In this document: in pieces, positions 1,964 to 62,458 of the stretch
Position numbering within the stretch: the stretch's first letter is position 1
Layout of the letters: every line of letters begins with the position of its first letter
Assembly (NCBI GenBank): GCA_963700155.1
Contig: OY969472.1
Span: 517,059 to 581,058 of the forward strand
Source: an uncultured bacterium
Lineage (GTDB): Bacteria > Patescibacteriota > Dojkabacteria > J137
Direction of reading: 5' to 3'
Length of the DNA stretch: 64,000 nucleotides
The notes under the pieces: generated by a model
What the model was told of the DNA's origin: nothing
The model's database searches: none
The model's input: only the letters and a program-made list of their open reading frames with translations
Made by a program: the position numbers and the translations under genes

Positions 1964-2658
1964 CATTAATTGGAACACCTTTGGGCAATATTGAAGATAT
2001 TTCTATAAGACAGTTAAAAACTTTATTTTCATTTGAAATTATCTTAGCGGAAGATACAAGAAGCTACATTAAGTTAAGAAACATTCTTTCTGAAAGATTT
2101 TCAGAGATTATCAGCGGATTAGGTCTTGATACTAATCATCGACCTGAACTAATTTCATATAGAGAGCAGAATCATAATAAAGTTTTACCTCAAATATTAG
2201 AATTATTAAAAGAAGAAAAGAAATTAGGTTTAATCACAGATGCAGGGATGCCTACAATTTCAGATCCTGGATATAAATTGGTAGATGAAGTTTTGAAAGC
2301 GGGTTTTGAGGTTGATGTGATTCCTGGAGCTACTGCAATTGAAACAGCTCTTGCGATTTCAGGACTACCAACTGATAGATTCACATTCTTAGGGTTTTTA
2401 CCTAGAACCAAATCTAAAATCCAGAAACTTTTACCTCAAAACCCGCAAAACACAATAATAATTTATGAGTCTCCTTTTAGAGTTATAAAAACTCTTGAAA
2501 TAATTTCTGAAGTTTATCCAGATGCAGAGATTGCTGCTTGCAATGATCTGACAAAAAAATTTCAGAAAGTCTGGAGAGGAAATATTAAAGAGGTGATTAT
2601 TGAACTCAAAAAAATAAAAGTACAGGGGGAATGGGTTTTAGTACTAAAGTGTTACTGA
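1957..2658 (+). CDS. rsmI: 16S rRNA (cytidine1402-2'-O)-methyltransferase RsmI (tetrapyrrole-methylase fold)
   Basis: N-terminus LTLIGTPLGNIEDISIRQL..ILAEDTR, DAGMPTISDPG, and a typical length of 233 aa. Overlaps the upstream gene by 7 nt. Confidence 0.85.
   Translation: MLTLIGTPLGNIEDISIRQLKTLFSFEIILAEDTRSYIKLRNILSERFSEIISGLGLDTNHRPELISYREQNHNKVLPQILELLKEEKKLGLITDAGMPTISDPGYKLVDEVLKAGFEVDVIPGATAIETALAISGLPTDRFTFLGFLPRTKSKIQKLLPQNPQNTIIIYESPFRVIKTLEIISEVYPDAEIAACNDLTKKFQKVWRGNIKEVIIELKKIKVQGEWVLVLKCY
2299..2446. repeat. 14-bp perfect inverted repeat, 120-nt spacer, inside rsmI
   Basis: GCGGGTTTTGAGGT (2299-2312) / ACCTCAAAACCCGC (2433-2446). Confidence 0.9.
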
Positions 2659-3056: not shown

Positions 3057-4571
3057 TTAGTTGACGATGTCAACTCTATAGCTCAAAGCTTCAGCAATAT
3101 GTTTTTCTTCAACTTTTTTTAAACCTTCTAAGTCGGCAATTGTTCGGGCAACCCGAAGAATTCTAAAATATGATCTTGCTGATAAATTCATTTTCCTTAC
3201 AGCCATATCTAACAATTGCCGAGAAGATAAATCTAATTCTATATATTTGAAAATATCTTTTTGCTTAATTTCTGAATTAGAAAAGATATTTTCATTTTCA
3301 AACCTTCTTAATTGAATCTCTTTGGCTTTTTTAACTCTAACTTTAATTTTCTCAGAACATTCAGATTCCTTATTTTCAAATAACTTATTATTTTCAACTT
3401 TTGGTACATTTATTAAAAGATCTATTCTATCCAAAATTGGTCCTGAAATTCTTTTTTGATATTTGATAACTTCACCTTGAGTACAAGTACAATGCCTTAT
3501 TGGGTCACCTCTGTAACCACATTTGCATGGGTTCATTGCTGCAACTAAAGTAAAGCTTGCCGGAAAAGTTAAAGAAGCAGAGGCTCTAGAAATTGTTACA
3601 ACTTTATCTTCTAAAGGCTGTCTTAAAGCTTCTAAAGATTGAGAAGTAAACTCTGGAAATTCATCTAAAAATAAAATACCTCGATGAGCTAAAGATATTT
3701 CTCCAGGGCGGGGGATTGCTCCCCCGCCCACAAGAGCTACTTGAGAAGAAGTATGATGCGGCGACCTGAAAGGTCGCCGCAAAACCAATGGAGAATCTTT
3801 TAAAGTCATTCCCGCAACACTATATATTCTTGTAACTTCAAGTGATTCTTCCAATGTCATATCAGGTAGAATTGAAGGAAGACATTTAGAAAGTAAAGTT
3901 TTTCCAGAACCTGGAACTCCAGAAAGCAAAATATTATGACCACCTGCTGCAGCAATTTCCATGGCTCTTTTGGCATGTTCTTGACCTTTAACTTGTGCAA
4001 AGTCATATTCGTAATTTTCAATAACATTAGAATCAAGATCTTTTACTTTTGGTTTTATTCTAATAATTCCGCTGAAATGAGCAATTAATTCACTAAGAGT
4101 TTCGACTGGATAAATTTTTATTCCATCAACAAGACTTGCTTCATCAGCATTCTCAAATGGTATATACACTTCTTCGAAACCAAGATTTTTTATATGATCA
4201 ACAATAGGTAAAATTCCATGAACAGGCCTAAGCCTTCCATCCAAAGCTAATTCACCAATAAAAAGTTTCTTTTCTGTATCAATTTTTATCTGTTCCGAAG
4301 CAATTAAATATCCAATAGCTAATGGAAGGTCATAACTAGGACCTGTTTTTATTAATTCGGCGGGAGCTAAATTCATTATAATCTGCATAGGTATAAAGCT
4401 CCCGCCAGAATTTTTAATCGCCGAAGGGATTCTATCTTTAGCTTCTTGTATTGACTTATCTGCAAGGCCTACAATAGAGAAGAAGTTTGTACCTTTTCGA
4501 TAATCAACTTCAACTTCTACAATTTTACAGTCTAGACCTAAGAGAGTAGCGGTATATAATTTTGCCAACAT
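3057..4571 (-). CDS. comM: Mg-chelatase-like AAA+ protein ComM/YifB
   Basis: Walker A LSGVPGSGKT, RPFRSPHH, VGGG..PRPGEISLAHRGILFLDEFPEF, C-terminal ARSYFRILRVARTIADL. Confidence 0.9.
   Translation of the reverse strand: MLAKLYTATLLGLDCKIVEVEVDYRKGTNFFSIVGLADKSIQEAKDRIPSAIKNSGGSFIPMQIIMNLAPAELIKTGPSYDLPLAIGYLIASEQIKIDTEKKLFIGELALDGRLRPVHGILPIVDHIKNLGFEEVYIPFENADEASLVDGIKIYPVETLSELIAHFSGIIRIKPKVKDLDSNVIENYEYDFAQVKGQEHAKRAMEIAAAGGHNILLSGVPGSGKTLLSKCLPSILPDMTLEESLEVTRIYSVAGMTLKDSPLVLRRPFRSPHHTSSQVALVGGGAIPRPGEISLAHRGILFLDEFPEFTSQSLEALRQPLEDKVVTISRASASLTFPASFTLVAAMNPCKCGYRGDPIRHCTCTQGEVIKYQKRISGPILDRIDLLINVPKVENNKLFENKESECSEKIKVRVKKAKEIQLRRFENENIFSNSEIKQKDIFKYIELDLSSRQLLDMAVRKMNLSARSYFRILRVARTIADLEGLKKVEEKHIAEALSYRVDIVN
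3143..3157. repeat. 6-bp GC-rich hairpin inside comM
   Basis: TTCGGG-CAA-CCCGAA. Confidence 0.8.
3706..3729. repeat. 10-bp GC hairpin inside comM
   Basis: GGGCGGGGGA-TTGC-TCCCCCGCCC. Encodes the conserved GGGAIPRPG segment. Confidence 0.9.
3757..3781. repeat. 9-11-bp GC hairpin inside comM
   Basis: GCGGCGACC-TGAAA-GGTCGCCGC. Encodes the conserved RRPFRSP segment. Confidence 0.9.
4359..4406. repeat. 10-bp GC-rich inverted repeat, 28-nt spacer, inside comM
   Basis: GGCGGGAGCT (4359-4368) / AGCTCCCGCC (4397-4406). Confidence 0.9.
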
Positions 4572-5348: not shown

Positions 5349-6563
5349 TTAAAAACTTAGCGTTGGGTCTCGATCGATTTGATCAAAATCTTTTAAATAA
5401 ATATTTTCTGAAGGATTATGTTTTATTTCTGAAATTTTTGAAAGCTTAACATTCGCAGCAACTGCAATCATAGCTGCATTATCTCCAGTCAATTTCTTTG
5501 AATATGGGAATCGCATTTTAATATTATTTTCTTTACAAATTACCCTAAATTCAGATCTCAATCTTGAACTAGCTATAACGCCGCCGCCAAGCCAAAGTTC
5601 TTTAGGTTGGTATTTCTGAATTGCTTTTCGAAGCTTGAACTTAAGCTGTTCAAGGGCGGCGGCTTCAAATACTACACACAAATCCATAATTTGTTCTTTT
5701 GTTAATCCGCCTTTTGATTTATCAGAATACAATCCTTCGATTTCTTCTTTGTGGCTTATAGTTTTGTTTAACAATTTCTCTACTAATTGCTTAAATGCTG
5801 TTTTTACTCCTGAATAACTGAAGTTTAAGTCACCAGATCTAATCATCGCTATCGGCAACATATATTCTGCTTTTGTATTTTTATTTGTACACTTTACTGA
5901 AGTACTTAGATTATCTTTAACAATTTCAATTTTCATATTTTTTCTTTGTCTTTTTGCAAATTCAGTAATAATCGGACCTGCAGGATATCCAAGTCCTAAA
6001 ATCCTTCCGCATTTATCATAAGCTTCTCCACATGAATCGTCTAAAGTTTCCCCTAGTTTTTCATATTCACCCCAGTTTTTTACAAGAATTAATTCAGTAT
6101 GGCTTCCAGAAACTAAAAAACCTAATGTTGGAAATTGCTGATCATTAACTTTGGTTTCAAAATCTAACTCTTTTAATTCTGATTTTCTCTCGGCGAAAGC
6201 TGAAAGAAGATGTCCTTCCATGTGATTTATTAAAATAAGTGGTTTATTATATTCAACACTCAAAGCTTTCGCCTTTTTAACTCCAATTTCTAAAGCTATT
6301 GCCAATCCTGGACCAATAGTTACTGCAACAGCATCAATATCCTTCATTTCTAAACCGGCTCTTTTCAAAGCTTCAATAACAACATTATCTATTCTTTCTG
6401 CATGTGCTAATCTTGCAAGATTAGGCACAACACCTCCATATTTTTTATGAAATTCCATTTGAGATGGCTGGACATTTGAAAGTACAGTAAAACCTCGGAC
6501 AACTGAAGCCGATGTTTCATCACAAGATGTATCTATTCCTAGTGTTAAAAAGTCTTTATGCAT
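5349..6563 (-). CDS. tsaD: tRNA N6-adenosine threonylcarbamoyltransferase TsaD (with about 65 aa of extra insertions)
   Basis: LGIDTSCDETSASV, GGVVPNLARLAHAE, INHMEGHL, LVSGSHTEL, GGGVIAS. I place the start at MHKDF (6563). The ORF-track start at 6599 would overlap the upstream gene by 20 nt. Confidence 0.9.
   Translation of the reverse strand: MHKDFLTLGIDTSCDETSASVVRGFTVLSNVQPSQMEFHKKYGGVVPNLARLAHAERIDNVVIEALKRAGLEMKDIDAVAVTIGPGLAIALEIGVKKAKALSVEYNKPLILINHMEGHLLSAFAERKSELKELDFETKVNDQQFPTLGFLVSGSHTELILVKNWGEYEKLGETLDDSCGEAYDKCGRILGLGYPAGPIITEFAKRQRKNMKIEIVKDNLSTSVKCTNKNTKAEYMLPIAMIRSGDLNFSYSGVKTAFKQLVEKLLNKTISHKEEIEGLYSDKSKGGLTKEQIMDLCVVFEAAALEQLKFKLRKAIQKYQPKELWLGGGVIASSRLRSEFRVICKENNIKMRFPYSKKLTGDNAAMIAVAANVKLSKISEIKHNPSENIYLKDFDQIDRDPTLSF
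5580..5663. repeat. 9-bp all-GC inverted repeat, 66-nt spacer, inside tsaD
   Basis: GCCGCCGCC (5580-5588) / GGCGGCGGC (5655-5663). Confidence 0.9.
6192..6273. repeat. 10-bp inverted repeat, 62-nt spacer, inside tsaD
   Basis: GGCGAAAGCT (6192-6201) / AGCTTTCGCC (6264-6273). Confidence 0.9.
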
Positions 6564-8765: not shown

Positions 8766-9641
8766 ATGAACTTAATAACCAGAGATAAAAAATTCATGAA
8801 TACAACAATCACCTTTAAAGTTGTTAAAGGTGATGTAACAACTGTAAAAACCCTAGATTCAATTGAAGCGGCTTTTGGTGAATTTGACAGAATTGTAAAA
8901 CAATATACAAGGTTTGATGAAAACTCTGAACTTTCAAATTTAAATAGAAATAGTGGTAAATGGGTCAAAGTTTCAAGCGAGTTTTTTTGGCTCATAGAAT
9001 ATATGCTTAAACTTGCCAAAAAAACTCGCGGTGCATTCGACCCAACAGTAATAGATTTTCTTGAAGTCTATGGCTATGATAAAAACTATGACTTCTCAAA
9101 ACTTAATAATCCAGAACTTGATAAATTAGTTGAAAAAATCAGTAAAACAAGAAAGTCATGGAAAGATGTTGAATTGAAGAAAAAGAGTAGCGAAGTAAAA
9201 TTGGCAAAGGTCCAAAAAATTGACTTAGGTGGAGTAGGTAAAGGATATGCAATAGATTGTGCTTTTGAAAAATTAAAACAAGTTTCAGATAATTTTCTTA
9301 TTGATGCTGGTGGAGATGTTAGAGCATCTGGCACTAATGAGAAGGGTGAATTATGGAAGGTTGGAATGAAAGATAGAGCAGGAGAAATTGAAGAATTAAT
9401 CGGATATATCGAGCTTAATAATGAAGCCCTCGCATGCTCTGGATCATGGTCTAGAAGAGTGAAACAGTTCCACCATCTTATAAACCCAGCGACTGGAGTT
9501 CCTCAAAATTATTATCGGACAGTTTTTGTTCAAGCTCCTGATGGAATTACTTCAGATTCATGGGCAACTGCAGTTTTTGTTTCGGGAGAAAATGACTTAA
9601 AAATTCCTGAAAATATGAAGATATTCAAAATAACTAATTGA
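8766..9641 (+). CDS. apbE: FAD:protein FMN transferase ApbE
   Basis: SELSNLN, GAFDPTV, DLGGVGKGYAID, ACSGS, HHLINPATG. Confidence 0.8.
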   Translation: MNLITRDKKFMNTTITFKVVKGDVTTVKTLDSIEAAFGEFDRIVKQYTRFDENSELSNLNRNSGKWVKVSSEFFWLIEYMLKLAKKTRGAFDPTVIDFLEVYGYDKNYDFSKLNNPELDKLVEKISKTRKSWKDVELKKKSSEVKLAKVQKIDLGGVGKGYAIDCAFEKLKQVSDNFLIDAGGDVRASGTNEKGELWKVGMKDRAGEIEELIGYIELNNEALACSGSWSRRVKQFHHLINPATGVPQNYYRTVFVQAPDGITSDSWATAVFVSGENDLKIPENMKIFKITN

Positions 9642-10404: not shown

Positions 10405-10983
10405 TTATCTGATTATATAATTTTTAATAAAATCCAGAAATTTACCGTAATTTGTATAGATAAGATAAAGATTTGAGAATAAGAGAAGAGGAAAAACAAA
10501 AGAAGTTTCAACTAGTTTTCCAGTAGTTATTCTTAAGCTTTTTAATGGGGGAATTCCGAACCTATATGGGATTGGAAACAGCCAAGGTACACCTTCTTTA
10601 GTAAAAGTATCTAAGACTAAATGCGAAATTAAACCAAACATAAAAGCATTCCAAACTATATTTATGTCCACCAATAAGAATGTTCGCATATATTCTAAAA
10701 TAAACTGTGCCAAGATGCCAAAAATTGCTAATCCTAAAATAGAATGCGAAATAGATCTATGAGCTCCAAAAAATGGATGGAGAATCTTCCCTATTAAAGT
10801 ACCTGCTGGTAACTTTCTCCATAGTTTTCCTGTCGGCTGATCCAAATCCGGAGCAATTCCACCAATCATAGAAGCACCAATTGCAGTAAAAACCGTAGCA
10901 ACACTTACTGTCGGTAAAGGTTGAGTTGCAATAACAAATGTTAGTGTTGTTAATGCTGCTAAATCGTGAGTTCTTCCTGTCAT
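10405..10983 (-). CDS. membrane-bound metal-dependent hydrolase (YdjM/DUF457-like)
   Basis: N-terminal MTGRTHD, multiple TM segments, conserved H and D residues (SHSILG, SHLVLD). Confidence 0.55.
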   Translation of the reverse strand: MTGRTHDLAALTTLTFVIATQPLPTVSVATVFTAIGASMIGGIAPDLDQPTGKLWRKLPAGTLIGKILHPFFGAHRSISHSILGLAIFGILAQFILEYMRTFLLVDINIVWNAFMFGLISHLVLDTFTKEGVPWLFPIPYRFGIPPLKSLRITTGKLVETSFVFPLLLFSNLYLIYTNYGKFLDFIKNYIIR

Positions 10984-11513
10984 GAATTTATTTTATCATT
11001 TTCAACTTTTTCATTAATCTTTTTCATTCTATGTCTTATGAAAGGATTTATTGTTGATATGAATATTATTTCAATAATCAATGCCGAAACTGGTACAAGA
11101 ATGATTACAGAAGATTCAATTACTGATAATCTCATATAGATTACTAGGCCTATTACAGCTGTTATAAGCACGGCCCTTCTTATTGAATTATAAAGAGATG
11201 GTGCATCATAATAACTTTTAAAAAACAACTTATCTAAAAACAAATGAAGGGCCGTGCAAAAACTTAAGATTGCTGCAAGAAATACTCCAAATGCAAGGTA
11301 TGTAACGTTCGTTAAATACTGAAATATCAAACCTTTATCAACTATTCCTCTAATAACTTCATTTAGCTTATCCCAATCTCCGGGATTTATGGCATTAGAA
11401 GTAATAAGTTCGTTAATTTTATTCGCATCGAATGGCGAAAATTCTTTTAGAATATATATTAATATTAAGGTAAAGAATCCTCCTAAAATTGTAAAAATCA
11501 AAGCATTTTTCAT
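10980..11513 (-). CDS. hypothetical multi-pass membrane protein
   Basis: 177-aa hydrophobic ORF with a 4-nt overlap onto the downstream gene. Confidence 0.5.
   Translation of the reverse strand: MKNALIFTILGGFFTLILIYILKEFSPFDANKINELITSNAINPGDWDKLNEVIRGIVDKGLIFQYLTNVTYLAFGVFLAAILSFCTALHLFLDKLFFKSYYDAPSLYNSIRRAVLITAVIGLVIYMRLSVIESSVIILVPVSALIIEIIFISTINPFIRHRMKKINEKVENDKINS
11168..11257. repeat. 12-bp inverted repeat, 66-nt spacer, inside the membrane-protein gene
   Basis: GCACGGCCCTTC (11168-11179) / GAAGGGCCGTGC (11246-11257). Confidence 0.9.
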
Positions 11514-12234: not shown

Positions 12235-12235
12235 T

Positions 12236-13201: not shown

Positions 13202-14431
13202 ATGTACAAAATTAATATGCGAAAAAAAATATTAATAAGCTTTATCTTTTTACAAGTTATTTTAATATTAGGCTCAGGTTTTGTAAGTGCTGATGATATT
13301 CAAAGCTTATCCACTCTTAATATTGACACTTCTATCACAGTAAAAGATACTACTGGTTTTGGAGATCCCACACAGATTATTGTTACTCCTGTTTTTATTA
13401 ATAATGGAACAGAAGTAAACACAGATAAATGGGTTAGAGGTATTTATTATTACACTATCGATAAATTAGGATTTCAAAACATTCCTTTTCATTATTTAAT
13501 TACAGAAGATGGTGGAGTTTTTAAAGGTAACAGCTCAGGTGATGAGAAAAAAATTAACATAGAAGGAATTGGCGATAATGCAGTTGTAGTTGGATATTTA
13601 AGTACAGATGAGGCGGGCGCTATAGCGCCCGCCTCAGAACAACCATTATCAAATCTGCTGCTAAATATAGCTAATCAAGATTCTATAAATCCTGAAAATA
13701 TATCAGCAAGTGGAATAAATTTTATTAAAGATAGTTCAAGCAATACAATAACAATTCAAAAAGCTAAAGTTGGGAGTGAGTGGAGTATAGGTATTAATAA
13801 AATTGTAAATAATATTAAAAATAAGTATTCTCCAATTACAAAAAAATATAGCGTTGAAATAACTCAGGTTACATTACCAACAAACGAAATAACACCTGGT
13901 GATGAAGCTACAGTCTCGATTAAAATAAAAAATACTGGTAAGAATGGATTTTATAGTGGTGCTAATTCTGAAATACTTTTAACAAAAGATAATGGAATTT
14001 CCAGCAACTTCTATATAAATAATACATGGCTCAGCCAAACTCAAACTGGAATAATGTCAGATGGTATATCTCTTCTCCCAGGTGAAGAAAAAGGGTTTGA
14101 TTTTAAAGTCAAAGCTCCACTGGCAACCGGAGATTATTCAGAAAACTTTATTTTGAAAACTGCAGGTGGAACTACTATAAAAAGTAACAAAAATATTGAG
14201 TTAAAAATTAAGTTAAAAAAAACTAATAAACAAATTATTGAGATAAAAACAAGCTATGATTATGTAAATGTAAGAAGCAAACCTTATGATTCAGCCCCTG
14301 TTTTAAGAAAAGTTACTGCAGGAGAAAGATATTTCCTTCTAGATCTAAATGAAGATACCCTTTGGGCAAAAATTGACTTAGGGGGTGGAGTAGAAGGTTA
14401 CCTTCCCGCTTGGGATTTGAAATATATTTAA
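13202..14431 (+). CDS. secreted cell-wall-associated protein: amidase_2/PGRP-like N-domain, Ig-like middle domain, C-terminal SH3b
   Basis: Signal/TM N-terminus. IPFHYLITEDGGVFKGN resembles amidase_2. C-terminal VNVRSKPYDSAPVLRKVTAGERYFLL..WAKI is SH3b-like. Confidence 0.5.
   Translation: MYKINMRKKILISFIFLQVILILGSGFVSADDIQSLSTLNIDTSITVKDTTGFGDPTQIIVTPVFINNGTEVNTDKWVRGIYYYTIDKLGFQNIPFHYLITEDGGVFKGNSSGDEKKINIEGIGDNAVVVGYLSTDEAGAIAPASEQPLSNLLLNIANQDSINPENISASGINFIKDSSSNTITIQKAKVGSEWSIGINKIVNNIKNKYSPITKKYSVEITQVTLPTNEITPGDEATVSIKIKNTGKNGFYSGANSEILLTKDNGISSNFYINNTWLSQTQTGIMSDGISLLPGEEKGFDFKVKAPLATGDYSENFILKTAGGTTIKSNKNIELKIKLKKTNKQIIEIKTSYDYVNVRSKPYDSAPVLRKVTAGERYFLLDLNEDTLWAKIDLGGGVEGYLPAWDLKYI
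13609..13636. repeat. 28-bp perfect GC-rich palindrome inside the amidase-like/SH3b gene
   Basis: TGAGGCGGGCGCTATAGCGCCCGCCTCA. Encodes ..DEAGAIAPASE.. Confidence 0.95.
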
Positions 14432-14442: not shown

Positions 14443-15930
14443 ATGCCAAAGGTAAAAATAATACTAATTATTGTTTTTGTGCTTTCTTTTTTTGTTAGTT
14501 TATTGCTTTTTCTAAAGTTTAATACTGTTGGATTTGAACAATCATTTAGGGCATATTTGGCATGGTATAACCCGACTGATGATAATTTAAAAAATTTCTA
14601 TGATATTTCGACTAGTCAAAATTTTTTATCTTCATTAAATTTTGAAAATCAGACTTTTAAAAACGGGACTGAATTGTTTGATTTCTTAAGGAATGAACAA
14701 AAGACAAACAATTCAGTCCCCGCAGTAGCTAAAGATAATCGAGACAGCAAAGTTCCAATTCAATTTGATGAAGAGAATATTGACGATACAAACCTTCCTC
14801 AGAAAATTACTTATGTATCACCTGGAGTTCTTGGATACTATGTATATAATTATGATCTAGTAAGATTCTCTCCTGATAAAAATACTCTTGAAAGCAAATA
14901 TTTAAATTTAAAAGAGAGTACTATTGATCCTATTTCAAAAAAGAATGTTACTGGTACAAAAGATTTAAAAACAGCAAAGACAGAAGTTAATAGTTATTTT
15001 AATAAACTTATAACTGATGTTGGCAATACAAACACATATGATGGCTTAACAAAAGAGAGTTTTAAAAAACTTGAAAACCACGAGGTTCTTGAAAATATTT
15101 CAGTTAATTCAATAAATTTTGTTGAAAAGAACTTTAAAGAAACTGAATTAAAAGATAACAAATTAATTATTGGAACGATAAATATTCACTTAGAAAACTG
15201 TTTTAAAGATTTTTCAGAAGATTTGAGTTTTTCTATCAATACCGGTGACATTCAAATTAATGACTTAAATGATTTTGTAAGTAACTTATGTAAAAAGCAA
15301 TTCGTTAAAGTTAATGGGGTAATTACCGGAACTTGTACTGATTGTACTTATTATCCAGCTGATAAATGGCATGCTTTAAGATCTGACTATACTCCCAAAA
15401 CTCAATTGATTGATTTCGCTCCGGGAGGACAATATATTAATACACAAGCATATAACGACTTTAAAGATTTATACAACGCAGCAAAAGCAGATGGAATATA
15501 TATTTATGTAACTTCAGGCTATCGTTCTTACAATACTCAAGTTGCGACATATCAAGGCTGGGTAAACACTGAACTTGCTGCTGGTTATTCTTTGTCTGAG
15601 GCAGAAGCTATTGCTAATACTTATTCAGCTCTTCCTGGGTACTCAGAGCACCAGCTTGGAACAGCGTTAGATTTAAATGGAGCAGGATGTGAAATTTCTG
15701 ATGGATATTGTTCAACAAACGAAACAATCTGGAACTGGCTTGCGGAAAATGCTTATAAATATGGGTTTGCACAATCATACCCTGAAGGAAAAGAGTCAAT
15801 TACAGGATATACCACCGAAAGGTGGCATTACAGGTGGATTGGGAAAGACTTAGCTGAAGAATATAAAAAAGCTGGAGGAGGAACAAAAATTACTTTAAAT
15901 GTATTTTTATTGAATAAAGGATTATATTAA
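14443..15930 (+). CDS. D-alanyl-D-alanine carboxypeptidase, peptidase M15B (VanY-like), membrane-anchored
   Basis: N-terminal TM. C-terminal SGYRSYNTQ, GYSEHQLGTALDL, ERWHYRW zinc-site motifs. Confidence 0.8.
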   Translation: MPKVKIILIIVFVLSFFVSLLLFLKFNTVGFEQSFRAYLAWYNPTDDNLKNFYDISTSQNFLSSLNFENQTFKNGTELFDFLRNEQKTNNSVPAVAKDNRDSKVPIQFDEENIDDTNLPQKITYVSPGVLGYYVYNYDLVRFSPDKNTLESKYLNLKESTIDPISKKNVTGTKDLKTAKTEVNSYFNKLITDVGNTNTYDGLTKESFKKLENHEVLENISVNSINFVEKNFKETELKDNKLIIGTINIHLENCFKDFSEDLSFSINTGDIQINDLNDFVSNLCKKQFVKVNGVITGTCTDCTYYPADKWHALRSDYTPKTQLIDFAPGGQYINTQAYNDFKDLYNAAKADGIYIYVTSGYRSYNTQVATYQGWVNTELAAGYSLSEAEAIANTYSALPGYSEHQLGTALDLNGAGCEISDGYCSTNETIWNWLAENAYKYGFAQSYPEGKESITGYTTERWHYRWIGKDLAEEYKKAGGGTKITLNVFLLNKGLY

Positions 15931-16670: not shown

Positions 16671-17582
16671 TTATCTAAAAATTAAGACTTGTCTAGCTCT
16701 AGCAGCAATTTGAAAGAGTTTATACCAAAAAGGTTCAATGATAAAATCGACTGTTTCTGCATAATTAATAACTCTCCCTCCAAAGCCAACTTTAAATCTT
16801 GAAAATCCATCATAAATTATCTCTCCACTTTCTGATTTACCAACTGATTTAATTCCCCATAAATCTAAACTTTTAAATCCATTTTGTTTTCCCCATTGGA
16901 TAATTTCCCAAACTAATGCATATGGAGCCATAACATTTTTAAATTCATCACTTGAACCTCCATATGGATAATAAATTACTTCTTCATATAAAAATAATAA
17001 CCAGGAGGCTAGTGGTTTTCCTTGAAAATATGCTGTAGCGATTGTTACAATTTTATCCGATTTTAAAGAATTCCATACTGTAGTTATATATTCTTTGCTT
17101 CGTCCATGGTAACCTTGACGAATAACAGTTGCTTCATAAAGTTTTAGGAATTCAGCAAAAGCATCTTCAGAGTCTGATATTTTAACTTCAACTCCTTTTT
17201 TGTGTGCTAAATTTAAGTTGTATCTATGCTTTTGCTTCATAGAGGCTAATAATTCTTCATCACTTATTGTTAAATTAATAGCTGTATTTTCTTGAAGATG
17301 AACTGGAATTCCTGATTTAAATTGATATTGAGAGGGAAGAGTTGCATTTTCAGAAATTAAATTTTCTGGGTCAATTGTTACATAAACACACTTAGCTTCT
17401 TTAGCTTTTCTATGCAGCTCTTCCCAATTTATCTTTGTTAAATCCGGACGTGGCATATATCCAACTGTTTTACCTATCAATGGTAGAGTAGTTGTTTGAA
17501 AAAAGTAACCTCCTACATCATAAACTTGATTTCCAAGACTCCTTTTACATTCCTTCCAGTATTTTGATTGTAAAAAATGCAT
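16671..17582 (-). CDS. FemAB-family peptidoglycan interpeptide-bridge aminoacyltransferase (FemX-like)
   Basis: MHFLQSKYWKECK.., YPYGGSSDEF, FSRFKVGFGG. Family-typical length. Confidence 0.8.
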   Translation of the reverse strand: MHFLQSKYWKECKRSLGNQVYDVGGYFFQTTTLPLIGKTVGYMPRPDLTKINWEELHRKAKEAKCVYVTIDPENLISENATLPSQYQFKSGIPVHLQENTAINLTISDEELLASMKQKHRYNLNLAHKKGVEVKISDSEDAFAEFLKLYEATVIRQGYHGRSKEYITTVWNSLKSDKIVTIATAYFQGKPLASWLLFLYEEVIYYPYGGSSDEFKNVMAPYALVWEIIQWGKQNGFKSLDLWGIKSVGKSESGEIIYDGFSRFKVGFGGRVINYAETVDFIIEPFWYKLFQIAARARQVLIFR

Positions 17583-17583
17583 A

Positions 17584-18666
17584 TTAATATCTATCCTTTC
17601 TATAACTCCAGAAATCTATAGCTCTATGTAGTAAATATCTTAAATTATCATTATAAATTTCCATTGGACCAACATAATTAATTTCCTTTCCACCAAAACT
17701 TCTCTTGAATTCAGAAACCCCATTCATAGGATTTTTTGCCTTCTTGTTTTCAGGTAAAGATTTAGGCAGAATTCCCCACATATTATATTTTCTGAAACCT
17801 TTTTCTTTAGCATATTTCATTATCTCCCACTGTAAAAAATATGGAGAGCGGAGCTTTGACATAGTTCTATCAGATGTAGAAGCTCCATGAGTATAATAAG
17901 CTGTTTCATTATAGTAATTAATCAAAGCTCCGCTAATATATTTGGCTCTATATCTTGCTAAGAATATATCCGTCATTCCTTTAGGATTCAATGCATCAAA
18001 CTGCTTTTTGAAATATTCAAAATCATAGTTTCCAAAACCTTTTCTTTGAGTAGTTTCATTCATCAAATCTGAAAAGGCTTTAACTTCTTCAATTGTAGTA
18101 GCTTTTACTAATTCTAGTTCACTTCTTGATGACCGATTTATATTATATCTGGTCGAATCGCTCATTTTCGAGCGCAACTCATCCTCATTTTGATCTAAAT
18201 CTAACTCCCAGACATCTTTAGCTTGAGCAGGGGCGAGGGATGTTTTAAAGCCTAAATTCTTTAAATTTTCACTATATTTTTTAGGGAGCAGTGGATCAAA
18301 TCTGAAAAGAGTAAGGAAATTTTGGAATATATAATCCTGCATAAAGTTTTTTAACTGTGTAAAAAAATCTGCAAATTCTTGTTCATTCATAGGATCACCA
18401 ACTATAACTGGTCCATATGGAACATAAGCATATTTTATAAATTTCCTTCTGTAAATTTCTATATATAAAATTCCTATTTCATATTCTCTGTCGCCAACTT
18501 CAAGGATAATAAAATATTGATCAATTTCTTTTCCTAATGATTTTTGAAAATCGATCCAATTAATTGAAGAAAGAAATGAAGAATTTTCTGCTTCTAAATT
18601 TATTTTTTCCCATATTTGTTTTTTATCTTCACTATATTTTTCAAATTTTAGTAGCACAGAAATCAA
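17584..18666 (-). CDS. FemAB-family aminoacyltransferase (second copy)
   Basis: SINWIDFQKSLGK, YYTHGASTS, VSEFKRSFGG. TTG start in the ORF track; the exact start is uncertain. Confidence 0.75.
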   Translation of the reverse strand: MISVLLKFEKYSEDKKQIWEKINLEAENSSFLSSINWIDFQKSLGKEIDQYFIILEVGDREYEIGILYIEIYRRKFIKYAYVPYGPVIVGDPMNEQEFADFFTQLKNFMQDYIFQNFLTLFRFDPLLPKKYSENLKNLGFKTSLAPAQAKDVWELDLDQNEDELRSKMSDSTRYNINRSSRSELELVKATTIEEVKAFSDLMNETTQRKGFGNYDFEYFKKQFDALNPKGMTDIFLARYRAKYISGALINYYNETAYYTHGASTSDRTMSKLRSPYFLQWEIMKYAKEKGFRKYNMWGILPKSLPENKKAKNPMNGVSEFKRSFGGKEINYVGPMEIYNDNLRYLLHRAIDFWSYRKDRY

Positions 18667-19396: not shown

Positions 19397-20542
19397 TTAA
19401 GCATCTCTTCTTAGAGGCATTAGAAGGTGAACAAATTTTGAATCATCTTTATCTTTAAAAACTGAAGCTGCCAATGGACCTTTAGTTTCAAAGATTATGG
19501 TGTCTCCTTTTATATGACTGACAACATCAGATATATATCGTAAATTGTAAGAAGCATTCAAATCACTTTCTCCATTTACAGAAGTCACTGGAATTAAAGT
19601 TTGATTTTCACCAACTTCAGCTACTACAGATTGCAACATAACAGTTGCGTTTTCTAGGTTGAGGTCAAAAAGTGTTTTGTATCCTAAATTACTTCTAGCA
19701 AAAGTATTAATGATCCTAATCGCAGATTCCAAATCTGACTTTTTGACCTCAAATGAATAGCTGAAAGAATCAGGCATTATCCTTTTATAATCAGGATAAG
19801 GTCCCTCTAATAATCTTATGCTGAATTCTATCTCTTCAAATTTAAAAATAACTTGGGATTTACTTTGACCTAAATAAACTTCAATACTATCAACATCAAC
19901 ATAATCTTGAATAATTTTAACCAATTCGCTTAAATATCTTGCCGGAACAATAACTTGTTCTGTTGGATATTCATTAACATCTTTTACTTTTGCACTACGC
20001 TTTGAAAGTCTAAAACCATCTAAACCAATAAAATTGATCTCACTTTTTTCTTTATCATATTCAAATAAAATTCCACTTTGCTGTATTTTTCCAGCTGATA
20101 AATCTGTTGATGAAGCAAAAATTACTTTATCCATTGATGCTAAAAATTCCTTTGCTGAAATTACAAACAGTGGAGTTTCTGAAACTTCTGGTAAAACAGG
20201 GAATTCGGTTGCCGGGATAGTAGTAAAATTAGCTTTTGAGTTTTCTGTTACAACATCTACTACATTATCATTCAAACTTAGTTCAACGTTATCTCCTACT
20301 GCTGCTGCAACAAAATCTGCAATGTATTTTGCTGATACAGTAACGCTTCCTTCTTGTTCAACTACTCCAGGTATCCACACATTTATCCCCATATCTAAGT
20401 TTGTTGCTGATAGTTTTAAACCATTCTTATTAACATCTAAAAGAACGTTTGAAAGTACTGGTATATTTGGTTTTAAACTAACAGCTCTACTTGTATATTG
20501 TAATGACTTTGAAAGGTTATCTCTGTTTAGTTTGATTTTCAT
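19397..20542 (-). CDS. dnaN: DNA polymerase III beta sliding clamp
   Basis: 381 aa. Typical start MKIKLNRDNLSKSLQYTSRAV..PVLSNVLL and C-terminal ..LMPLR. Confidence 0.9.
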   Translation of the reverse strand: MKIKLNRDNLSKSLQYTSRAVSLKPNIPVLSNVLLDVNKNGLKLSATNLDMGINVWIPGVVEQEGSVTVSAKYIADFVAAAVGDNVELSLNDNVVDVVTENSKANFTTIPATEFPVLPEVSETPLFVISAKEFLASMDKVIFASSTDLSAGKIQQSGILFEYDKEKSEINFIGLDGFRLSKRSAKVKDVNEYPTEQVIVPARYLSELVKIIQDYVDVDSIEVYLGQSKSQVIFKFEEIEFSIRLLEGPYPDYKRIMPDSFSYSFEVKKSDLESAIRIINTFARSNLGYKTLFDLNLENATVMLQSVVAEVGENQTLIPVTSVNGESDLNASYNLRYISDVVSHIKGDTIIFETKGPLAASVFKDKDDSKFVHLLMPLRRDA

Positions 20543-21795: not shown

Positions 21796-21800
21796 ACTTA

Positions 21801-22528: not shown

Positions 22529-23938
22529 TTATTCTACATCCTCCGTTACAGCGGCATTATCTTGAATATTTGTTATTACTTGTGCAACTTGAGAATTAAA
22601 TCCATCCTGAATCATCATTTTGCTTTTAATCTTATCAAGTGCATGAAGCACAGTTGTATGATCAGTCCTTTTTAAATATTTTGCGACTTCTTCAAGTTTA
22701 TAACTAAATTCTTCTCTTAAGATATACATTGCAACTTGTCTTGCCAAAGCCAACTCCTTTGTTCTTCTCGGACCTTTTAAATCTTTTACAGTAACGCCAA
22801 ATGATTTAGCAACTTCTCTAATAACTTGAGGCACTTTAATCTGGGATCTTTTTGTTTGCGAATCTTTTCCAATTGTATGTGCAACTTCTTCTAATGTTAA
22901 ATCTCCATTCGGTTTCATTTGATTAAATAAAGCTACTTTTTGAAGTGCCCCTTCAAGCTCTCTTACATTATCCGAAATATTTCTAGCCAAGTACTCTAAA
23001 ATTGGCATTTTTAAATTATAGCCGGAGTTTTCAGATTTTCTGTATAAGATTGCAAGGCGAGTTTCATAATCCGGATTTGAAATATCAACTACCATCCCGC
23101 CTTGCATTCTAGTTCTTAATCTACTTTCCATATTTTGAATATCCTCAGGTCTTCTATCGGCAATTAAAATAATTTGTTTACCAGCATTATAAAGTTCATT
23201 GAAAGTATTGAAGAATTCTTCTTGAGTGTGAACCCATTTTGAAATAAGTTGCATATCATCAATAATAAGCATATCCGTTGGTCTATATTTAGCTCTAAAT
23301 TTCTCCATTTGCCCTGTTTTAATTCCTTTTACCATCTCATTCAAAAATCCTTCAGATGGTGTATAAATTATTTTTTTACTAGGATTCCTTTCTAAAATTG
23401 ATCTACCAATTGCTTGTGCCAAGTGTGTTTTCCCAACACCGGTTTTCCCATGAATAAATAAAGGATTGTATGATTGACCAGGTCTTTCAATAATTGCTAA
23501 AGCTGCAGCATGTGCAATTTTATTTGCATTTCCTACAATATAATTTGACATTGTATATTTAGGATTTAATCCGGATTTAGTAACAGCTTCAATTACATTA
23601 CCCATAAATCCATTCTCAACATCAAGTAAAGGTGAGGATGATATATTTTTTGGTTCATTTTCAGCTTCATCTTCTTTTTGTTCATGAGTAACTTCAAAAA
23701 CTGGATTTAAAACATCTCCATAAACATAACTAATTGTGTCTTTAATCATTTTTTCGTATCTATTTTTTATCCAATCAGAAATGAAGGGATTAGGTACTCC
23801 GATTATTGCTTTATTACCATCTATTTTAACTAATCTAGTTTCTTGAAAATATGTTTTAAATTGAGCAGGTGCGTCCAGTTTAATCTCTATTTGAGCTAGG
23901 GTCGTTTTCCAGAGCTGTTTTTCATCTCTAATTTTCAT
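22529..23938 (-). CDS. dnaA: chromosomal replication initiator DnaA
   Basis: GKTGVGKTHL, IIDDMQLIS, RLRTRMQGG, C-terminal KELALARQVAMYILRE..DHTTVLHA. I place the start at MKIRDEKQLW (23938); the ORF-track start is 23992. Confidence 0.95.
   Translation of the reverse strand: MKIRDEKQLWKTTLAQIEIKLDAPAQFKTYFQETRLVKIDGNKAIIGVPNPFISDWIKNRYEKMIKDTISYVYGDVLNPVFEVTHEQKEDEAENEPKNISSSPLLDVENGFMGNVIEAVTKSGLNPKYTMSNYIVGNANKIAHAAALAIIERPGQSYNPLFIHGKTGVGKTHLAQAIGRSILERNPSKKIIYTPSEGFLNEMVKGIKTGQMEKFRAKYRPTDMLIIDDMQLISKWVHTQEEFFNTFNELYNAGKQIILIADRRPEDIQNMESRLRTRMQGGMVVDISNPDYETRLAILYRKSENSGYNLKMPILEYLARNISDNVRELEGALQKVALFNQMKPNGDLTLEEVAHTIGKDSQTKRSQIKVPQVIREVAKSFGVTVKDLKGPRRTKELALARQVAMYILREEFSYKLEEVAKYLKRTDHTTVLHALDKIKSKMMIQDGFNSQVAQVITNIQDNAAVTEDVE
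23051..23106. repeat. 9-bp inverted repeat, 38-nt spacer, inside dnaA
   Basis: TGCAAGGCG (23051-23059) / CGCCTTGCA (23098-23106). Confidence 0.85.
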
Positions 23939-24022
23939 AGGTTTAAAGTAATGGTTAAAGAATATATACTTAAATGAAATAAGTATTTGCAAAAGCTATT
24001 TTTTTAGTGCTGAATTTTTTTA

Positions 24023-24112: not shown

Positions 24113-24349
24113 ATGTTTAAATCAATTGCAAAATTTTTAATAAAAACTTACCAGAAATTGTTTTCTTTCGATCACTCTTTTTGGGCGTCTTGGGTTGGAA
24201 TGCCTGTTTGCAGGTTTACACCAACATGCTCACAATATACTTATGAAGCTATTGATAAGTACGGGGTTTTTAAAGGAAGTTTTATTGGGTTTAAAAGAAT
24301 TTTAAGGTGTAATCCTTTTACAAAAGGCGGGTATGATCCGGTTCCTTAA
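24113..24349 (+). CDS. yidD: membrane protein insertion efficiency factor YidD
   Basis: [33 protein letters not shown]. Confidence 0.85.
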
Positions 24350-25131
24350 GAAATTCCTTTAAAAACCCCTACCTCATCATTATTTATAGAAACTATATCT
24401 ACTTTAAATCTTTTAGAAGCTTTTATTAACTCAGTTTTATAAGTTAGTTTTGAAACATAATCTTCTAAAGATTTCAAAATTCCTAAATCTTTACCAATTA
24501 TGATGTATTCTTTTCCATTTATTTTATTATCTGCTGCTCCAAATTTATTTCTTTTCTTATGATCAGGACTTCTTTTTATTAGTAAAGCATTCTTGTTTCT
24601 TAAATTAAATTTTTGATTAAAAAACGAATCACTATCTTTAAATCTAGATTCCCAAGATTGATCACCTTTGGAAACTATGATGTTGGGCAGATTAATTTCA
24701 TAATCCTTTATCTTTTCTTCTGATAAATAATTTTTTAATAATTCAAGAATATACACACTTCTTAAAAAACTTGTATCTAGCTTAAAATTTTTAAGTTTAA
24801 TTATATTTCCGTGTTTTATATCCCCTTTGTAATACTTCCTAATATTAATACCGGATTGGATATTTGTTGGGTTAAATATGTTAGAAAAATACTGGTAAAA
24901 ATCGATATTATATTCTAAAAAATCTATAAACTCCTTTTTAAGATAGATTGGTATATTTGTTTGTGCTGAGTTAAATTTTTCTGCAGATGAATTTTTAACA
25001 TTATGATTTAATTCTGATAAAAATTCATCCAAAATAAAATGAATATTCTTTAAATGTTTTTGCTTTACCTCTTTATTTGTTTTTAATTTTAAAACTCTTG
25101 GGCCAAAATCAATTAAATACTCGTAAATCAT
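24346..25131 (-). CDS. hypothetical protein
   Basis: 261-aa Lys/Asn-rich ORF. No confident motif. Confidence 0.4.
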
Positions 25132-29451: not shown

Positions 29452-30215
29452 AAGTTTTAGACCAAGAAACAAAATTTGCACATTTAGGAAAGCCTGGGAC
29501 AGCTTTTACTCCTGGGTTTCAACGTAGATTGGACATGATAACTAAACTTGTTGATTTTAAAGATAAAAAAATTCTTGATCTAGGTTGTGGTGAAGGGGTG
29601 TGGCTTTCAAAGTTTGCAGAATTTACAAGTCCGGAAAATATTTATGGAAGTGAATATGATGGGGAGCAGGTTCAGTCTTTGAAAGCCACACCTTTAAAAA
29701 CTTCAAAAGGAGAAATCCCTTCAGAAAATATTGTTCAATGTCCAGGAGAAGATTTAGCATTTGAAGATAATTTTTTTGATATAGTTTTTCAAAATGAAGT
29801 TCTTGAACATGTGCAGGATGATGTTCAAACTTTAAAAGAATCATTAAGAGTTTTAAAACCAGAAGGAAAGTTAATAATTTTTACTCCAAATCGGGGCTGG
29901 CCTTTTGAACAGCACGGAATGTTTCTTAATGGAAAATATTATTGGGGTAACATTCCACTACTGCCTTGGATGCCAGCCCCGATTTATAAAAAGTTCGCAC
30001 CTCATGTCCGAAATTATTCTAATGGTGTGTTAAAACAAAAAATAAAAGAAGCTGGCGGAAAGATTGTTTATCATACTCATATATTCCCAGGGTTTGATGG
30101 AGCAGTTAGAAGGTTTGGGATTTTAGGGAAAATTCTTCAGAAATTTTTCTTTGTCCTTGAAAAAACACCTCTAAATTTCTTCGGAATTAGCCATCTCGTT
30201 ATTATCACCAAATGA
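29442..30215 (+). CDS. class I SAM-dependent methyltransferase
   Basis: Motif I ILDLGCGEGVW, FDIVFQNEVLEHV, post-II LKPEGKLIIFTPN. Confidence 0.8.
   Translation: MFMKVLDQETKFAHLGKPGTAFTPGFQRRLDMITKLVDFKDKKILDLGCGEGVWLSKFAEFTSPENIYGSEYDGEQVQSLKATPLKTSKGEIPSENIVQCPGEDLAFEDNFFDIVFQNEVLEHVQDDVQTLKESLRVLKPEGKLIIFTPNRGWPFEQHGMFLNGKYYWGNIPLLPWMPAPIYKKFAPHVRNYSNGVLKQKIKEAGGKIVYHTHIFPGFDGAVRRFGILGKILQKFFFVLEKTPLNFFGISHLVIITK
29888..29985. repeat. 14-bp inverted repeat, 70-nt spacer, inside the SAM-methyltransferase gene
   Basis: AAATCGGGGCTGGC (29888-29901) / GCCAGCCCCGATTT (29972-29985). Confidence 0.9.
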
Positions 30216-48800: not shown

Positions 48801-48887
48801 TTTAGAAAATATGATACTACTAACTATACTCAGTGTGATCTTTAAGATCAAACTTTCACAATGGTATAATCTTTTTGCAGTATTTAT

Positions 48888-48961
48888 GTACCCATAGCTC
48901 AACTGGATAGAGCACTACTTTGCGGAAGTAGCGGTTGGAGGTTCGACCCCTCTTGGGTACA
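48888..48961 (+). tRNA. tRNA-Arg (anticodon GCG)
   Basis: Hand-folded cloverleaf: acceptor GUACCCA/UGGGUAC, D arm GCUC..GAGC, anticodon stem CUACU/AGUAG with loop UUGCGGA, T arm GGAGG-UUCGACC-CCUCU. CCA is not encoded. Confidence 0.85.
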
Positions 48962-52363: not shown

Positions 52364-52397
52364 AATAAATCTTACCTGAATAAATATTCTTTATTTG

Positions 52398-61986: not shown

Positions 61987-62010
61987 GGCGCTCCGATTTA
62001 TCGGAGCGCC
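61987..62010 (+). terminator. GC-rich hairpin after the 71-aa ORF (terminator-like, no clear U tract)
   Basis: GGCGCTCCGAT-TT-ATCGGAGCGCC, an 11-bp perfect stem 16 nt after the stop codon. Confidence 0.35.
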
Positions 62011-62095
62011 AGAACCCTATTGTTGTTAGATTTTGGCAGCAATTAATGATATAATGATTATAGACATTTTTTATTCATGTTCTTTGAGGTGTGTA

Positions 62096-62396: not shown

Positions 62397-62458
62397 GGGC
62401 GCTCGCGAAAGAGCTTGGTGACCAAAAGTCCCAGGTGCGAGCGCCCGAAAGGCTTTTT
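62397..62458 (+). terminator. compound GC-rich stem plus short hairpin and T-run downstream of the His-rich ORF
   Basis: GGGCGCTCGC (62397-62406) pairs with GCGAGCGCCC (62437-62446), then GCCCGAAAGGC followed by TTTTTGT. Confidence 0.45.

Follow-up and report, generated by a model that had tools for sequence, protein, structure and literature searches.

Unique-sequence, GC-clamped inverted repeats in the coding sequences of comM and other genes of some Dojkabacteria lineages

Why should the coding sequence of comM (yifB), in a genome region with a GC content of about 30%, fold into a series of GC-rich hairpins? The gene lies in the stretch of DNA analyzed here, 64,000 nucleotides of contig OY969472.1 (assembly GCA_963700155.1, positions 517,059 to 581,058) from an uncultured member of the Dojkabacteria, which is referred to below as the window. 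Its product is 100% identical to a Dojkabacteria-type YifB encoded on a 1.14-Mb contig, and its best database matches are from Candidatus Dojkabacteria. A first-pass annotation of the window described four inverted repeats in comM, and all four were found in the gene at the positions it had named; a fifth, long-range stem, which surrounds the smallest of the four, had been missed (Table 1). As shown here, the five comM stems are members of a population of unique-sequence, perfect Watson-Crick, GC-clamped inverted repeats, and comM is not their target. The stems are written over ordinary coding sequence by rare GC-ending codons plus, where needed, amino acid replacements, and a lineage-specific, genome-wide force creates and preserves exact intrastrand stems, overriding codon bias and some residue conservation.

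The comM stems and the comM orthologues

The stability of the comM structures was compared with that of recodings in which the same peptide was rewritten with the codon usage of the window. The segment from 3690 to 3800 folds with a minimum free energy of -58.8 kcal/mol, compared with -22.5 ± 4.1 kcal/mol for the recodings, and none of 10,000 recodings was as low (minimum, -47.2). Dinucleotide shuffles agreed with this result, and within-gene permutation of the comM codons gave a z score of -8.4 (0 of 5,000). Taken singly, each of the four hairpins was more stable than all of its 3,000 recodings, with the z scores listed in Table 1, and the fifth stem alone was equalled by 5 of 3,000. A folding energy below that of synonymous recodings, as expected of a selected structure in a coding sequence, was thus found, and the earlier proposal that structure had been imposed through synonymous sites was borne out, the energy lying far outside the synonymous-shuffle distribution. 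Comparison with the Rfam covariance models returned only two tRNAs in the window, and the best match in comM was below threshold (E = 0.1).

The codons used in the stems are as rare elsewhere as had been claimed. On the mRNA strand, 3706-3729 (hairpin B) reads GTG GGC GGG GGA GCA ATC CCC CGC CCT, with each third-position base complementing a constrained first or second position of the opposite arm, and 3757-3781 (hairpin A) reads TTG CGG CGA CCT TTC AGG TCG CCG CAT, the latter stem measuring 11 bp with a loop of 3 nt, or 9 bp as originally drawn. The 3143-3157 hairpin is built from the rare arginine codons CGG and CGA, where relatives have AGA or CGT. Outside comM, in the 66 other open reading frames (ORFs), CGG and CGC stand at 1% each, CGA at 11%, and AGG at 16%, and the values for glycine, proline, and serine codons are 9% for GGC, 11% for GGG, 6% for CCC, 10% for CCG, and 5% for TCG. 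It was likewise correct that stems overlie the conserved part of the protein, RPFRSPHH and GGG..P.PGE being invariant or near-invariant in 30 Dojkabacteria ComM sequences. In the minimum-energy fold of the mRNA strand from 3695 to 3796, a 7-bp helix (TTCTCCA / TGGAGAA, loop of 83 nt), lengthened by AAAGA / TCTTT, surrounds hairpins A and B, and a three-helix domain is therefore predicted for this segment; the relative L161 is without this surrounding pairing.

For the orthologues, 160 comM loci were gathered from genomes and metagenomes, both motifs were located in 131, and the homologous segments were compared with within-gene codon permutations. The contig scans were dominated by the universal ComM motifs, and the relatives that they returned had at most 57% identity. 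No excess structure was seen in the 131 orthologues, which come from many phyla (mean z scores of -0.12 at the hairpin A site, -0.21 at the hairpin B site, and -0.08 for the whole segment), and orthologues of 65 to 71% GC fold the segment at -51.7 kcal/mol or weaker, less stably than the window. Among nearer relatives, hairpin B is absent from L161, L162, and L163. L161, whose protein is 80% identical, has hairpin A exactly and writes GGGAMPKP as GGT GGT GGT GCT ATG CCA AAA CCA; L162 and L163 (72 to 73% identity) are without hairpin A as well and encode RPFRSPHH and GGGxxPxPGE by ordinary AT-rich codons. Where the window has 4359-4406, L162 (whose genome is L167 below) carries a stem of 10 bp that also has a 28-nt loop but differs in sequence (CAGGCGCCAG) and is displaced in register by two bases. 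Where residues are identical, the comM genes of these Dojkabacteria share their codons at a rate of 0.46 to 0.52, so that synonymous sites are near saturation; the eight rare codons of hairpin A that are identical in L161 and in its contig, L168, for which overall synonymous identity is 0.52, are thus not a matter of simple inheritance.

Among the orthologues, L161 keeps the 3757-3781 hairpin only, the same peptides are encoded without pairing in L162 and L163, and the 131 distant orthologues lack hairpins A and B. That the hairpins are a feature of comM or of its conserved motif is not supported, given the mean z score of about -0.1 in these orthologues and the presence of similar stems in about 20 other genes. 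A universal comM structure or a conserved cis-regulatory structure was rejected on the same orthologue data. In the window, a short (213-aa) Ser/Thr protein-kinase-domain ORF (4706-5347) lies between tsaD and comM, and in relatives tsaD, dnaA-side genes, or others stand in place of the kinase ORF, so that local synteny is fluid.

The stem population, its lineages, and its maintenance

Stems were defined as perfect, with arms of at least 8 nt and loops of 3 to 120 nt, and the expectation was taken from within-gene codon permutation of 67 ORFs. By this measure, 22 stems with at least six G:C pairs were observed in the window versus 0.44 expected, and AT-rich stems, with zero to three G:C pairs, occurred at the shuffle expectation. 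Altogether, the window holds about 35 perfect GC-rich stems, roughly one per 2 kb: 30 are intragenic with at least five G:C pairs, and of five further stems, three are intergenic or at a gene end. Runs of at least 6 nt made up of G and C only are mostly complementary pairs, 4 to 90 nt apart within ORFs, and 3 of the 10 perfect stems with at least 60% GC and a loop of at most 40 nt are in comM. The hosts are ordinary housekeeping genes, among them rsmI, tsaD, apbE, femAB, dnaN, dnaA, ftsK, dnaJ, a Mur ligase gene, spoU, and uvrD. All intragenic stems are confined to single genes, where their relative positions are evenly spread from 0.04 to 0.89. A conserved motif rich in Gly, Ala, Pro, or Arg usually anchors one arm, e.g., Walker A of UvrD or the GGG of TsaD and ComM, and hairpins sit in such motifs because clusters of Gly, Pro, Arg, and Ala codons are the only GC-rich seeds in a genome of 30% GC. 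The arm sequences are all different, without a shared consensus, and weakly prefer to start with GCGG.

The pairing itself is exact. Of the stems measuring 11 bp or more, 16 pair perfectly, 3 contain a single internal mismatch, and one internal G.U pair was seen across about 19 stems. The stem ends are abrupt: complementarity past them does not exceed chance, G.T stands at the first unpaired position no more often than expected, and two-thirds of the ends could not be extended by a synonymous change, versus about half for random pairs. Where two third codon positions pair, 42% of the pairs are G:C, compared with a background GC content of 0.196 at third positions, and hairpin A uses CGA:TCG although the common AGA:TCT would pair too; a force favoring G:C is therefore needed. 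Perfect arms with abrupt ends that change together, as template switching would leave them, were thus found, whereas a process blind to base composition was not, as only GC-rich stems are in excess.

The stems show no bias toward the sense strand. Both strands fold equally with RNA or DNA parameters, and the difference between the sense and antisense folding energies (-1.98 kcal/mol for the elements versus -1.71 for random coding segments) is at background, so that neither G.U pairs nor added sense stability marks the sense strand; a G.U signal suggested by an 8:2 count at stem boundaries was rejected as G.T at chance frequency. The polarity of G-rich 5' arms in the window (21:5, with feasible sites at 479:426) was not reproduced in L167 and is not relied on. 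No T-tract follows the stems on either strand, the 8 nt past the 3' arm being 26% T in the sense and 33% T in the antisense direction (at or below background), and no stem has six or more T's there; together with the spread of positions along genes, this led us to reject intrinsic terminators, including bidirectional and antisense-only ones. A special loop composition was rejected, as loops have the background base composition, and no conserved internal loop structure was seen.

The loops of the window measure 3 to 5 nt (6 stems), 23 to 38 nt (6), 61 to 79 nt (11), 120 to 134 nt (3), and 219 nt (1), with none at 6 to 22, 39 to 60, or 80 to 119 nt. L167 has loops of 4, 5, 25 to 38 (8 stems), 64, 64, and 68 nt, L168 has loops of 3, 64, 83, and 122 nt, and L170 and L171 add 3, 22, 23, 28, 57, 61 to 70, 87/89, 161, and 188 nt. 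Pooled, the classes are 3 to 5, 22 to 38, and 57 to 71 nt, with a mode of 64 nt in the main class, and loop length varies less than total length. Among 46 unique stems, no loop fell at 6 to 21 or 39 to 56 nt versus 10.6 expected (P = 6e-6, post hoc). Codon-feasible stem sites are evenly spread over loop length, so that protein architecture does not explain the loop classes and was rejected as their source. The clustering is strong in the window and, elsewhere, consistent though only suggestive; a ruler seems to set loop length.

The trait is limited to some Dojkabacteria lineages. For this genome, 64 kb entered the comparison, and for each relative, 21 kb at most. Stems with at least five G:C pairs numbered 19 versus 1.7 expected in L167, 5 versus 0.36 in L168, 10 versus 1.2 in L170, and 8 versus 0.2 in L171. 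The shuffle test gave L164, L165, and L166, which are also Dojkabacteria, no more stems than expected, whatever the GC level. A count of such stems in 7.5 kb of L163, made outside that test, came to zero, and about 40 low-GC comM loci from other bacteria had 0 to 3 each. The comM genes of L167 and L168 contain one stem each, at sites differing from those of the window. By RsmI identity, the trait-negative L165 is nearer to the window than the trait-positive L162, which makes the trait patchy. The trait was seen in independent assemblies (NCBI and Logan), and over 4.5 kb that include four stems, the short-read contig L169, obtained in an independent run, matches the window at 99.98% (1 of 4,550 bases differs), which speaks against an assembly artifact. 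Thermophily as the cause of the GC clamps was rejected, as the IVYWREL fraction does not split trait-positive from trait-negative genomes.

In the positive lineages the pairing is actively maintained, as double changes are present, one-sided changes are absent, and imperfect stems are very few. Stems common to genomes yielded five compensatory double substitutions, some of which alter amino acids; an internal change in one arm alone was never seen in such stems. In rsmI, the window and L161/L168 differ by TTT>TTA (F>L) paired with CAA>CTA (Q>L), 120 nt apart. In the methyltransferase gene stem at 29888-29985, which has a 70-nt loop in both the window and L170, CGG>TGG (R>W) goes with CCG>CCA and GGC>GGG goes with GCC>CCC (A>P). 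An MGDG-synthase gene stem with a 23-nt loop shows AGG>CGG with CCT>CCG, and a second stem in this gene, with a loop of 161 nt, shows CAG>CGG with CCT>CCC between L170 and L171. Three of the five compensations are transversion pairs, for which no wobble intermediate is possible. In tsaD, the positive genomes have AAA (GCC GCC GCC) facing the conserved GGG (GGC GGC GGC), and a negative genome has AVT. The rare codons CCG CGA of the Mur ligase gene, in the peptide DPRT, are found in three genomes (window 39640-39662, L170 10414-10425, and L171 8774-8785) and pair with an upstream partner in the window, but with a downstream one in L170 and L171; GC-rich anchors may persist longer than individual stems. 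About three of eight stems are common to the window and L170, and most are common to L170 and L171, which indicates that stems outlast synonymous saturation, yet turn over. Codon alignments are collinear across arms and loops in comM, rsmI, tsaD, the methyltransferase gene, the MGDG-synthase gene, and spoU.

Table 1. Coordinates of comM and of the stems in the window
Feature	Coordinates	Strand, arms, and loop	Remarks
comM/yifB coding sequence	3057..4571	minus	504 aa; from ORF list and translation; host of five stems
Hairpin B (comM)	3706..3729	GGGCGGGGGA / TCCCCCGCCC, 10 bp, loop 4 (GCAA on mRNA)	encodes V-GGG-A-I-PRP; ΔG -24.8 kcal/mol, z -7.4
Hairpin A (comM)	3757..3781	TGCGGCGACCT / AGGTCGCCGCA, 11 bp, loop 3	encodes L-RRPFRSP-H; ΔG -21.4 kcal/mol, z -7.2
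comM stem	4359..4406	GGCGGGAGCT / AGCTCCCGCC, 10 bp, loop 28	encodes SGGSF...LAPA; z -4.6
Small hairpin in comM	3143..3157	TTCGGG / CCCGAA, 6 bp, loop 3	nested within 3133-3222; z -6.1
Fifth, long-range comM stem	3133..3222	TCGGCAATTGTT / AACAATTGCCGA, 12 bp, loop 66	3133-3144 pairs with 3211-3222; z -3.4
rsmI (TP_methylase) stem	2299..2446	arm 14 nt, loop 120	kept with compensatory change in L161/L168
tsaD stem	5580..5663	(GCC)3 / (GGC)3, loop 66	same stem in L167; trait-negative L166 has AVT for AAA
tsaD second stem	6192..6273	arm 10 nt, loop 62	
apbE stem	8977..9029	arm 15 nt, loop 23	
Stem in ORF 10980..11513	11168..11257	arm 12 nt, loop 66	
Hairpin in ORF 13202..14431	13609..13636	arm 12 nt, loop 4	peptide DEAGAIAPAS
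VanY-domain gene stem	14665..14720	arm 16 nt, loop 24	
FemAB gene stem	17334..17425	arm 8 nt, loop 76	5 G:C pairs; 13 pairs with loop 64 if one A.C mismatch is allowed
Second FemAB gene stem	17847..17934	arm 13 nt, loop 62	
dnaN stem	19659..19752	arm 15 nt, loop 64	5 G:C pairs
dnaA stem	23051..23106	arm 9 nt, loop 38	
Stem over 3' end of ORF 24346..25131 and dnaA-proximal intergenic region	24263..24369	arm 16 nt, loop 75	
ftsK hairpin	27811..27845	arm 15 nt, loop 5	
Methyltransferase gene stem	29597..29692	arm 16 nt, loop 64	
Methyltransferase gene stem	29888..29985	arm 14 nt, loop 70	kept in L170 with two compensatory pair changes (R/W, A/P)
MGDG-synthase-like gene stem	32851..32897	arm 12 nt, loop 23	kept in L170 and L171; A:T to C:G compensation in L170
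dnaJ stem	35227..35374	arm 12 nt, loop 124	
dnaJ stem	35714..35960	arm 14 nt, loop 219	
Mur ligase gene stem	39572..39662	arm 12 nt, loop 67	CCG CGA anchor kept in L170 and L171, other partner there
Mur ligase gene stem	39705..39800	arm 14 nt, loop 68	
Stem in ORF 47811..48902	48020..48118	arm 14 nt, loop 71	5 G:C pairs
Hairpin in ORF 47811..48902	48510..48540	arm 13 nt, loop 5	
SpoU methylase gene stem	51660..51707	arm 10 nt, loop 28	identical stem in L170
Stem in ORF 52395..54164	53192..53354	arm 11 nt, loop 141	5 G:C pairs; weakest candidate
Transglutaminase-like gene stem	56336..56434	arm 10 nt, loop 79	
Transglutaminase-like gene stem	56682..56727	arm 8 nt, loop 30	
uvrD/pcrA stem over Walker A motif	59637..59713	arm 8 nt, loop 61	
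uvrD/pcrA stem	60701..60866	arm 16 nt, loop 134	
Intergenic hairpin	61987..62010	arm 10 nt, loop 4	
Intergenic stem	62397..62446	arm 10 nt, loop 30	

Explanations for the stems

We lean, with low confidence (a probability of roughly 0.4), toward the reading that the relevant pairing forms in single-stranded DNA, for example, on a lagging-strand template coated with single-stranded-DNA-binding protein (SSB). The DNA level is favored because wobble pairs are lacking, the strands are symmetric, and the ratio of perfect to imperfect stems is high, and also because the transversion-type compensations have no wobble intermediate and one stem with a 30-nt loop is intergenic. Bacterial SSB has binding modes of 35 and 65 nt, and the loop classes fall close to these sizes. 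Under such a mechanism, only GC-rich stems would be able to resist melting on SSB-coated single-stranded DNA, and the loops that persist would be either tiny or matched to site sizes of about 35 and 65 nt. The arms would be held complementary by arm-to-arm templated correction of the sort described for quasipalindromes (PMC13100816), through template switching or hairpin-directed repair, which would explain their concerted change; G:C pairs would be given an advantage, and the outcome would be filtered by protein tolerance. It is conceivable that the stems have a generic purpose or that they are a by-product of a lineage-specific peculiarity of replication or repair.

Several points weigh against this reading. 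Templated correction alone does not explain the gain of GC in both arms; in hairpin B, both arms have derived GC third positions, so that a single template switch is insufficient, and an advantage for G:C or selection must be added. No intragenic stem extends beyond a single transcription unit, as an mRNA model demands, the loop classes are also approximately those of one and two ribosome footprints (about 30 and 60 to 65 nt), and the absence of G.U could be explained by selection for maximal RNA stability. Furthermore, when only the window was used to set the loop gaps beforehand, 2 of the 20 stems of the other genomes fell within them (P = 0.07), which is only suggestive, and the tail loops of 75 to 89, 120 to 134, 161, 188, and 219 nt fit no simple multiple. 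There is a substantial chance that the stems reflect a new process. The wider proposal, that an undescribed genome-wide process writes and maintains hundreds of unique GC-clamped inverted repeats in essential genes, with spacers set by a ruler (about 4, 30, and 65 nt) and consistent with SSB-covered single-stranded DNA, is put forward tentatively.

The strongest competitor, which we consider only slightly less probable, places the structures in the mRNA with a generic posttranscriptional role, as barriers to exonucleases or scanning endonucleases, as a means of ribosome pacing, or as RNase III sites; the comM hairpins would then be local roadblocks, as had been proposed in the first-pass annotation. 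The extreme folding energies compared with synonymous recodings, the confinement of intragenic stems to single genes, the covariation that keeps pairing, and the GNRA-type GCAA loop on the sense strand of hairpin B all fit this, as does the likeness of the loops to monosome and disome footprints, and excess local structure and stem-loops in bacterial coding regions provide a precedent (PMC1590033). The antisense strand folds equally, however, and the small sense advantage is that of any coding sequence; G.U is virtually unused although mutation in an AT-rich genome is dominated by C>T, and no T-tract is present that would make the stems terminators. If any stable structure served, short loops and a steady fall with length would be expected, with which the gaps at 6 to 21 and 39 to 56 nt disagree, and the positions turn over between lineages, with sister lineages carrying the same genes without the trait. 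We regard it as improbable that the stems are recognized or recombined by a protein or mobile element that is specific to the lineage and acts on DNA structure, candidates being a hairpin-binding HUH/RAYT-type enzyme, an invertase of intragenic invertons, or domesticated MITE-like in-frame insertions. A patchy distribution, as if following the gain and loss of a factor, perfect inverted repeats with sharp ends, and the weak GCGG preference would suit it, but the arms form no repeat family, what they enclose aligns collinearly with orthologues, with nothing inserted, and codes for conserved residues, and the arm polarity of the window is not seen in L167. Inversion of the loops would bring in stop codons in 20 of 25 cases, with dnaA, dnaN, ftsK, and tsaD among the hosts; recoding invertons were rejected on this ground, and MITE/RPE-type insertions were rejected on the unique arms and collinear alignments.

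A cis element specific to comM, be it an attenuator, a processing site, or the target of an integrating element, tied to the conserved ComM motifs, is largely refuted and highly improbable. The hairpins do overlie invariant motifs, comM is an insertion hotspot in other bacteria, and the gene carries 4 or 5 stems (4 in the count that was tested, versus 0.69 expected; Poisson P = 0.0055), an enrichment that is lost on correction for 67 genes. About 30 equivalent stems lie in unrelated genes, the L167 and L168 comM genes have their single stems elsewhere, and hairpins A and B are missing from L164, L165, and L166 in addition to L162, L163, and the 131 distant orthologues. Finally, chance, a quirk of codon usage, an imported GC-rich patch, or an assembly artifact is refuted. 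Gly and Pro codons are inherently complementary, and weak quasi-palindromes occur in every orthologue, but no synonymous recoding out of 10,000 reached the observed energy, the genome-wide excess is about 50-fold, even the orthologues of highest GC content fold the segment more weakly, and the trait recurs in independent assemblies and in the contig from the independent run.

Should the wider proposal hold, the stems would point to structure-directed concerted evolution or biased conversion of a new kind, or to a new structural code in the DNA of bacterial chromosomes. The coding sequences of these minimal-genome bacteria would then be under a second strong, lineage-specific constraint, readable from sequence alone, that forces rare codons and replacements beside catalytic motifs (K>R, M>I, and A>G in ComM; V/T>A in TsaD). 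This would bear on readings of synonymous and nonsynonymous rates in Candidate Phyla Radiation genomes and on codon-based selection tests, and it would touch the old question of whether selection or a mutational process keeps intrastrand stem-loop potential. Because sister lineages differ in having the trait, a comparison of complete Dojkabacteria genomes could pinpoint the responsible factor, and the discrete loop lengths provide a concrete biophysical prediction.

Other features of the region and comparison with known systems

The replication origin region lies inside the window (19397-24346), with dnaN at 19397..20542 and dnaA at 22529..23992, both on the minus strand; the cumulative GC skew has its minimum at about 22 to 24 kb, and gene orientation flips there. 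Stems are found on either side of the origin, in genes oriented both with and against replication. Between uvrD and trmD, an unusually long stretch of about 1 kb (61711-62774) is without a convincing gene and contains the two intergenic stems 61987-62010 and 62397-62446, a doubtful TTG-start ORF (62033..62380) with no Pfam match, and a long AT-rich hairpin at about 62681-62757 with only subthreshold, microRNA-like Rfam matches; this gap may hold an uncurated noncoding RNA. A predicted tRNA-Arg (48887-48962) has the anticodon GCG instead of the usual bacterial ACG, CGC and CGG each making up about 1% of arginine codons. The arginyl-tRNA synthetase of the window (44697-46424) is 36 to 37% identical to those of its relatives (L170 12514-14235 and L171 10220-11947, syntenic), compared with 62 to 77% for its neighbors, which suggests a swap of the gene at the syntenic site for a distant homologue. 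In L170, a Schlafen/AlbA_2-HATPase gene (10844-12454) is inserted between the Mur ligase gene and argS, and a large serine recombinase gene (19951-20795) lies at the end of the L170 stretch analyzed; these two may be mobile or defense insertions. The trait-negative L166 has a tandemly duplicated module of a sigma-70-family gene and a gene of unknown function, and its copies have the same upstream stem (arm TCGGGGAG, loop of 59 nt; 4727-4801 and 7724-7798) and a similar terminator-like hairpin (6851-6886 and 9902-9935).

Literature searches, in Patescibacteria and elsewhere, found no description of such a stem population. The nearest known systems share some of its traits. Selection for local secondary structure in bacterial coding regions was reportedly described by Katz and Burge in 2003, and Forsdyke is said to have written of "stem-loop potential." In bacterial coding regions, stem-loops exceed in both number and stability what codon or sequence shuffles predict (Petrillo et al., 2006, PMC1590033). 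The stems of the window likewise exceed shuffles, arise via synonymous sites, and share no sequence. Unlike such a diffuse excess, however, they are discrete, perfect GC clamps of 8 to 19 bp in a genome of 30% GC, at about 50 times the expectation, and they recruit amino acid replacements, are without G.U, have clustered loops, and are present or absent between sister lineages.

Other known elements resemble the stems in outward form. REP/BIME sequences, Rickettsia palindromic elements (RPE), and the GC clusters or double-hairpin elements of AT-rich mitochondrial genomes all arrive by insertion and form repeat families, each with a consensus. These, too, are scattered GC-rich palindromes, and RPE and the mitochondrial clusters lie partly inside coding sequences of AT-rich genomes, but each stem of the window has its own sequence and, unlike REP, RPE, MITE, and mitochondrial GC clusters, shows no insertion relative to orthologues. 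Intrinsic terminators and mRNA-stabilizing 3' hairpins are similarly GC-rich and perfect with short loops, as in 3706-3729, 3757-3781, and 61987-62010, whereas the stems have no U-tract on either strand, are uniformly placed along genes, and mostly have loops of 22 to 70 nt. Intragenic invertons, reportedly described by Chanin et al. in 2024, also have short inverted repeats around tens to hundreds of base pairs inside genes; in the window, inversion would give stops in most loops, and this in essential genes.

Quasipalindrome template-switch mutagenesis is said to be the subject of work by Ripley and Lovett. With this process the stems share imperfect repeats made perfect, concerted arms, sharp, tract-like ends, and multinucleotide changes that include nonsynonymous ones. 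The homogenization or expansion of inverted repeats by such switching is described in PMC13100816. It is known as a source of sporadic mutational hotspots, not as a genome-shaping force, and alone it leaves unexplained the excess of GC-rich stems only and the gain of third-position GC in both arms. Taken together, diffuse selection for local structure, repeated palindromic families, and quasipalindrome switching are the nearest known phenomena, and the stems differ from each of them in defined ways.

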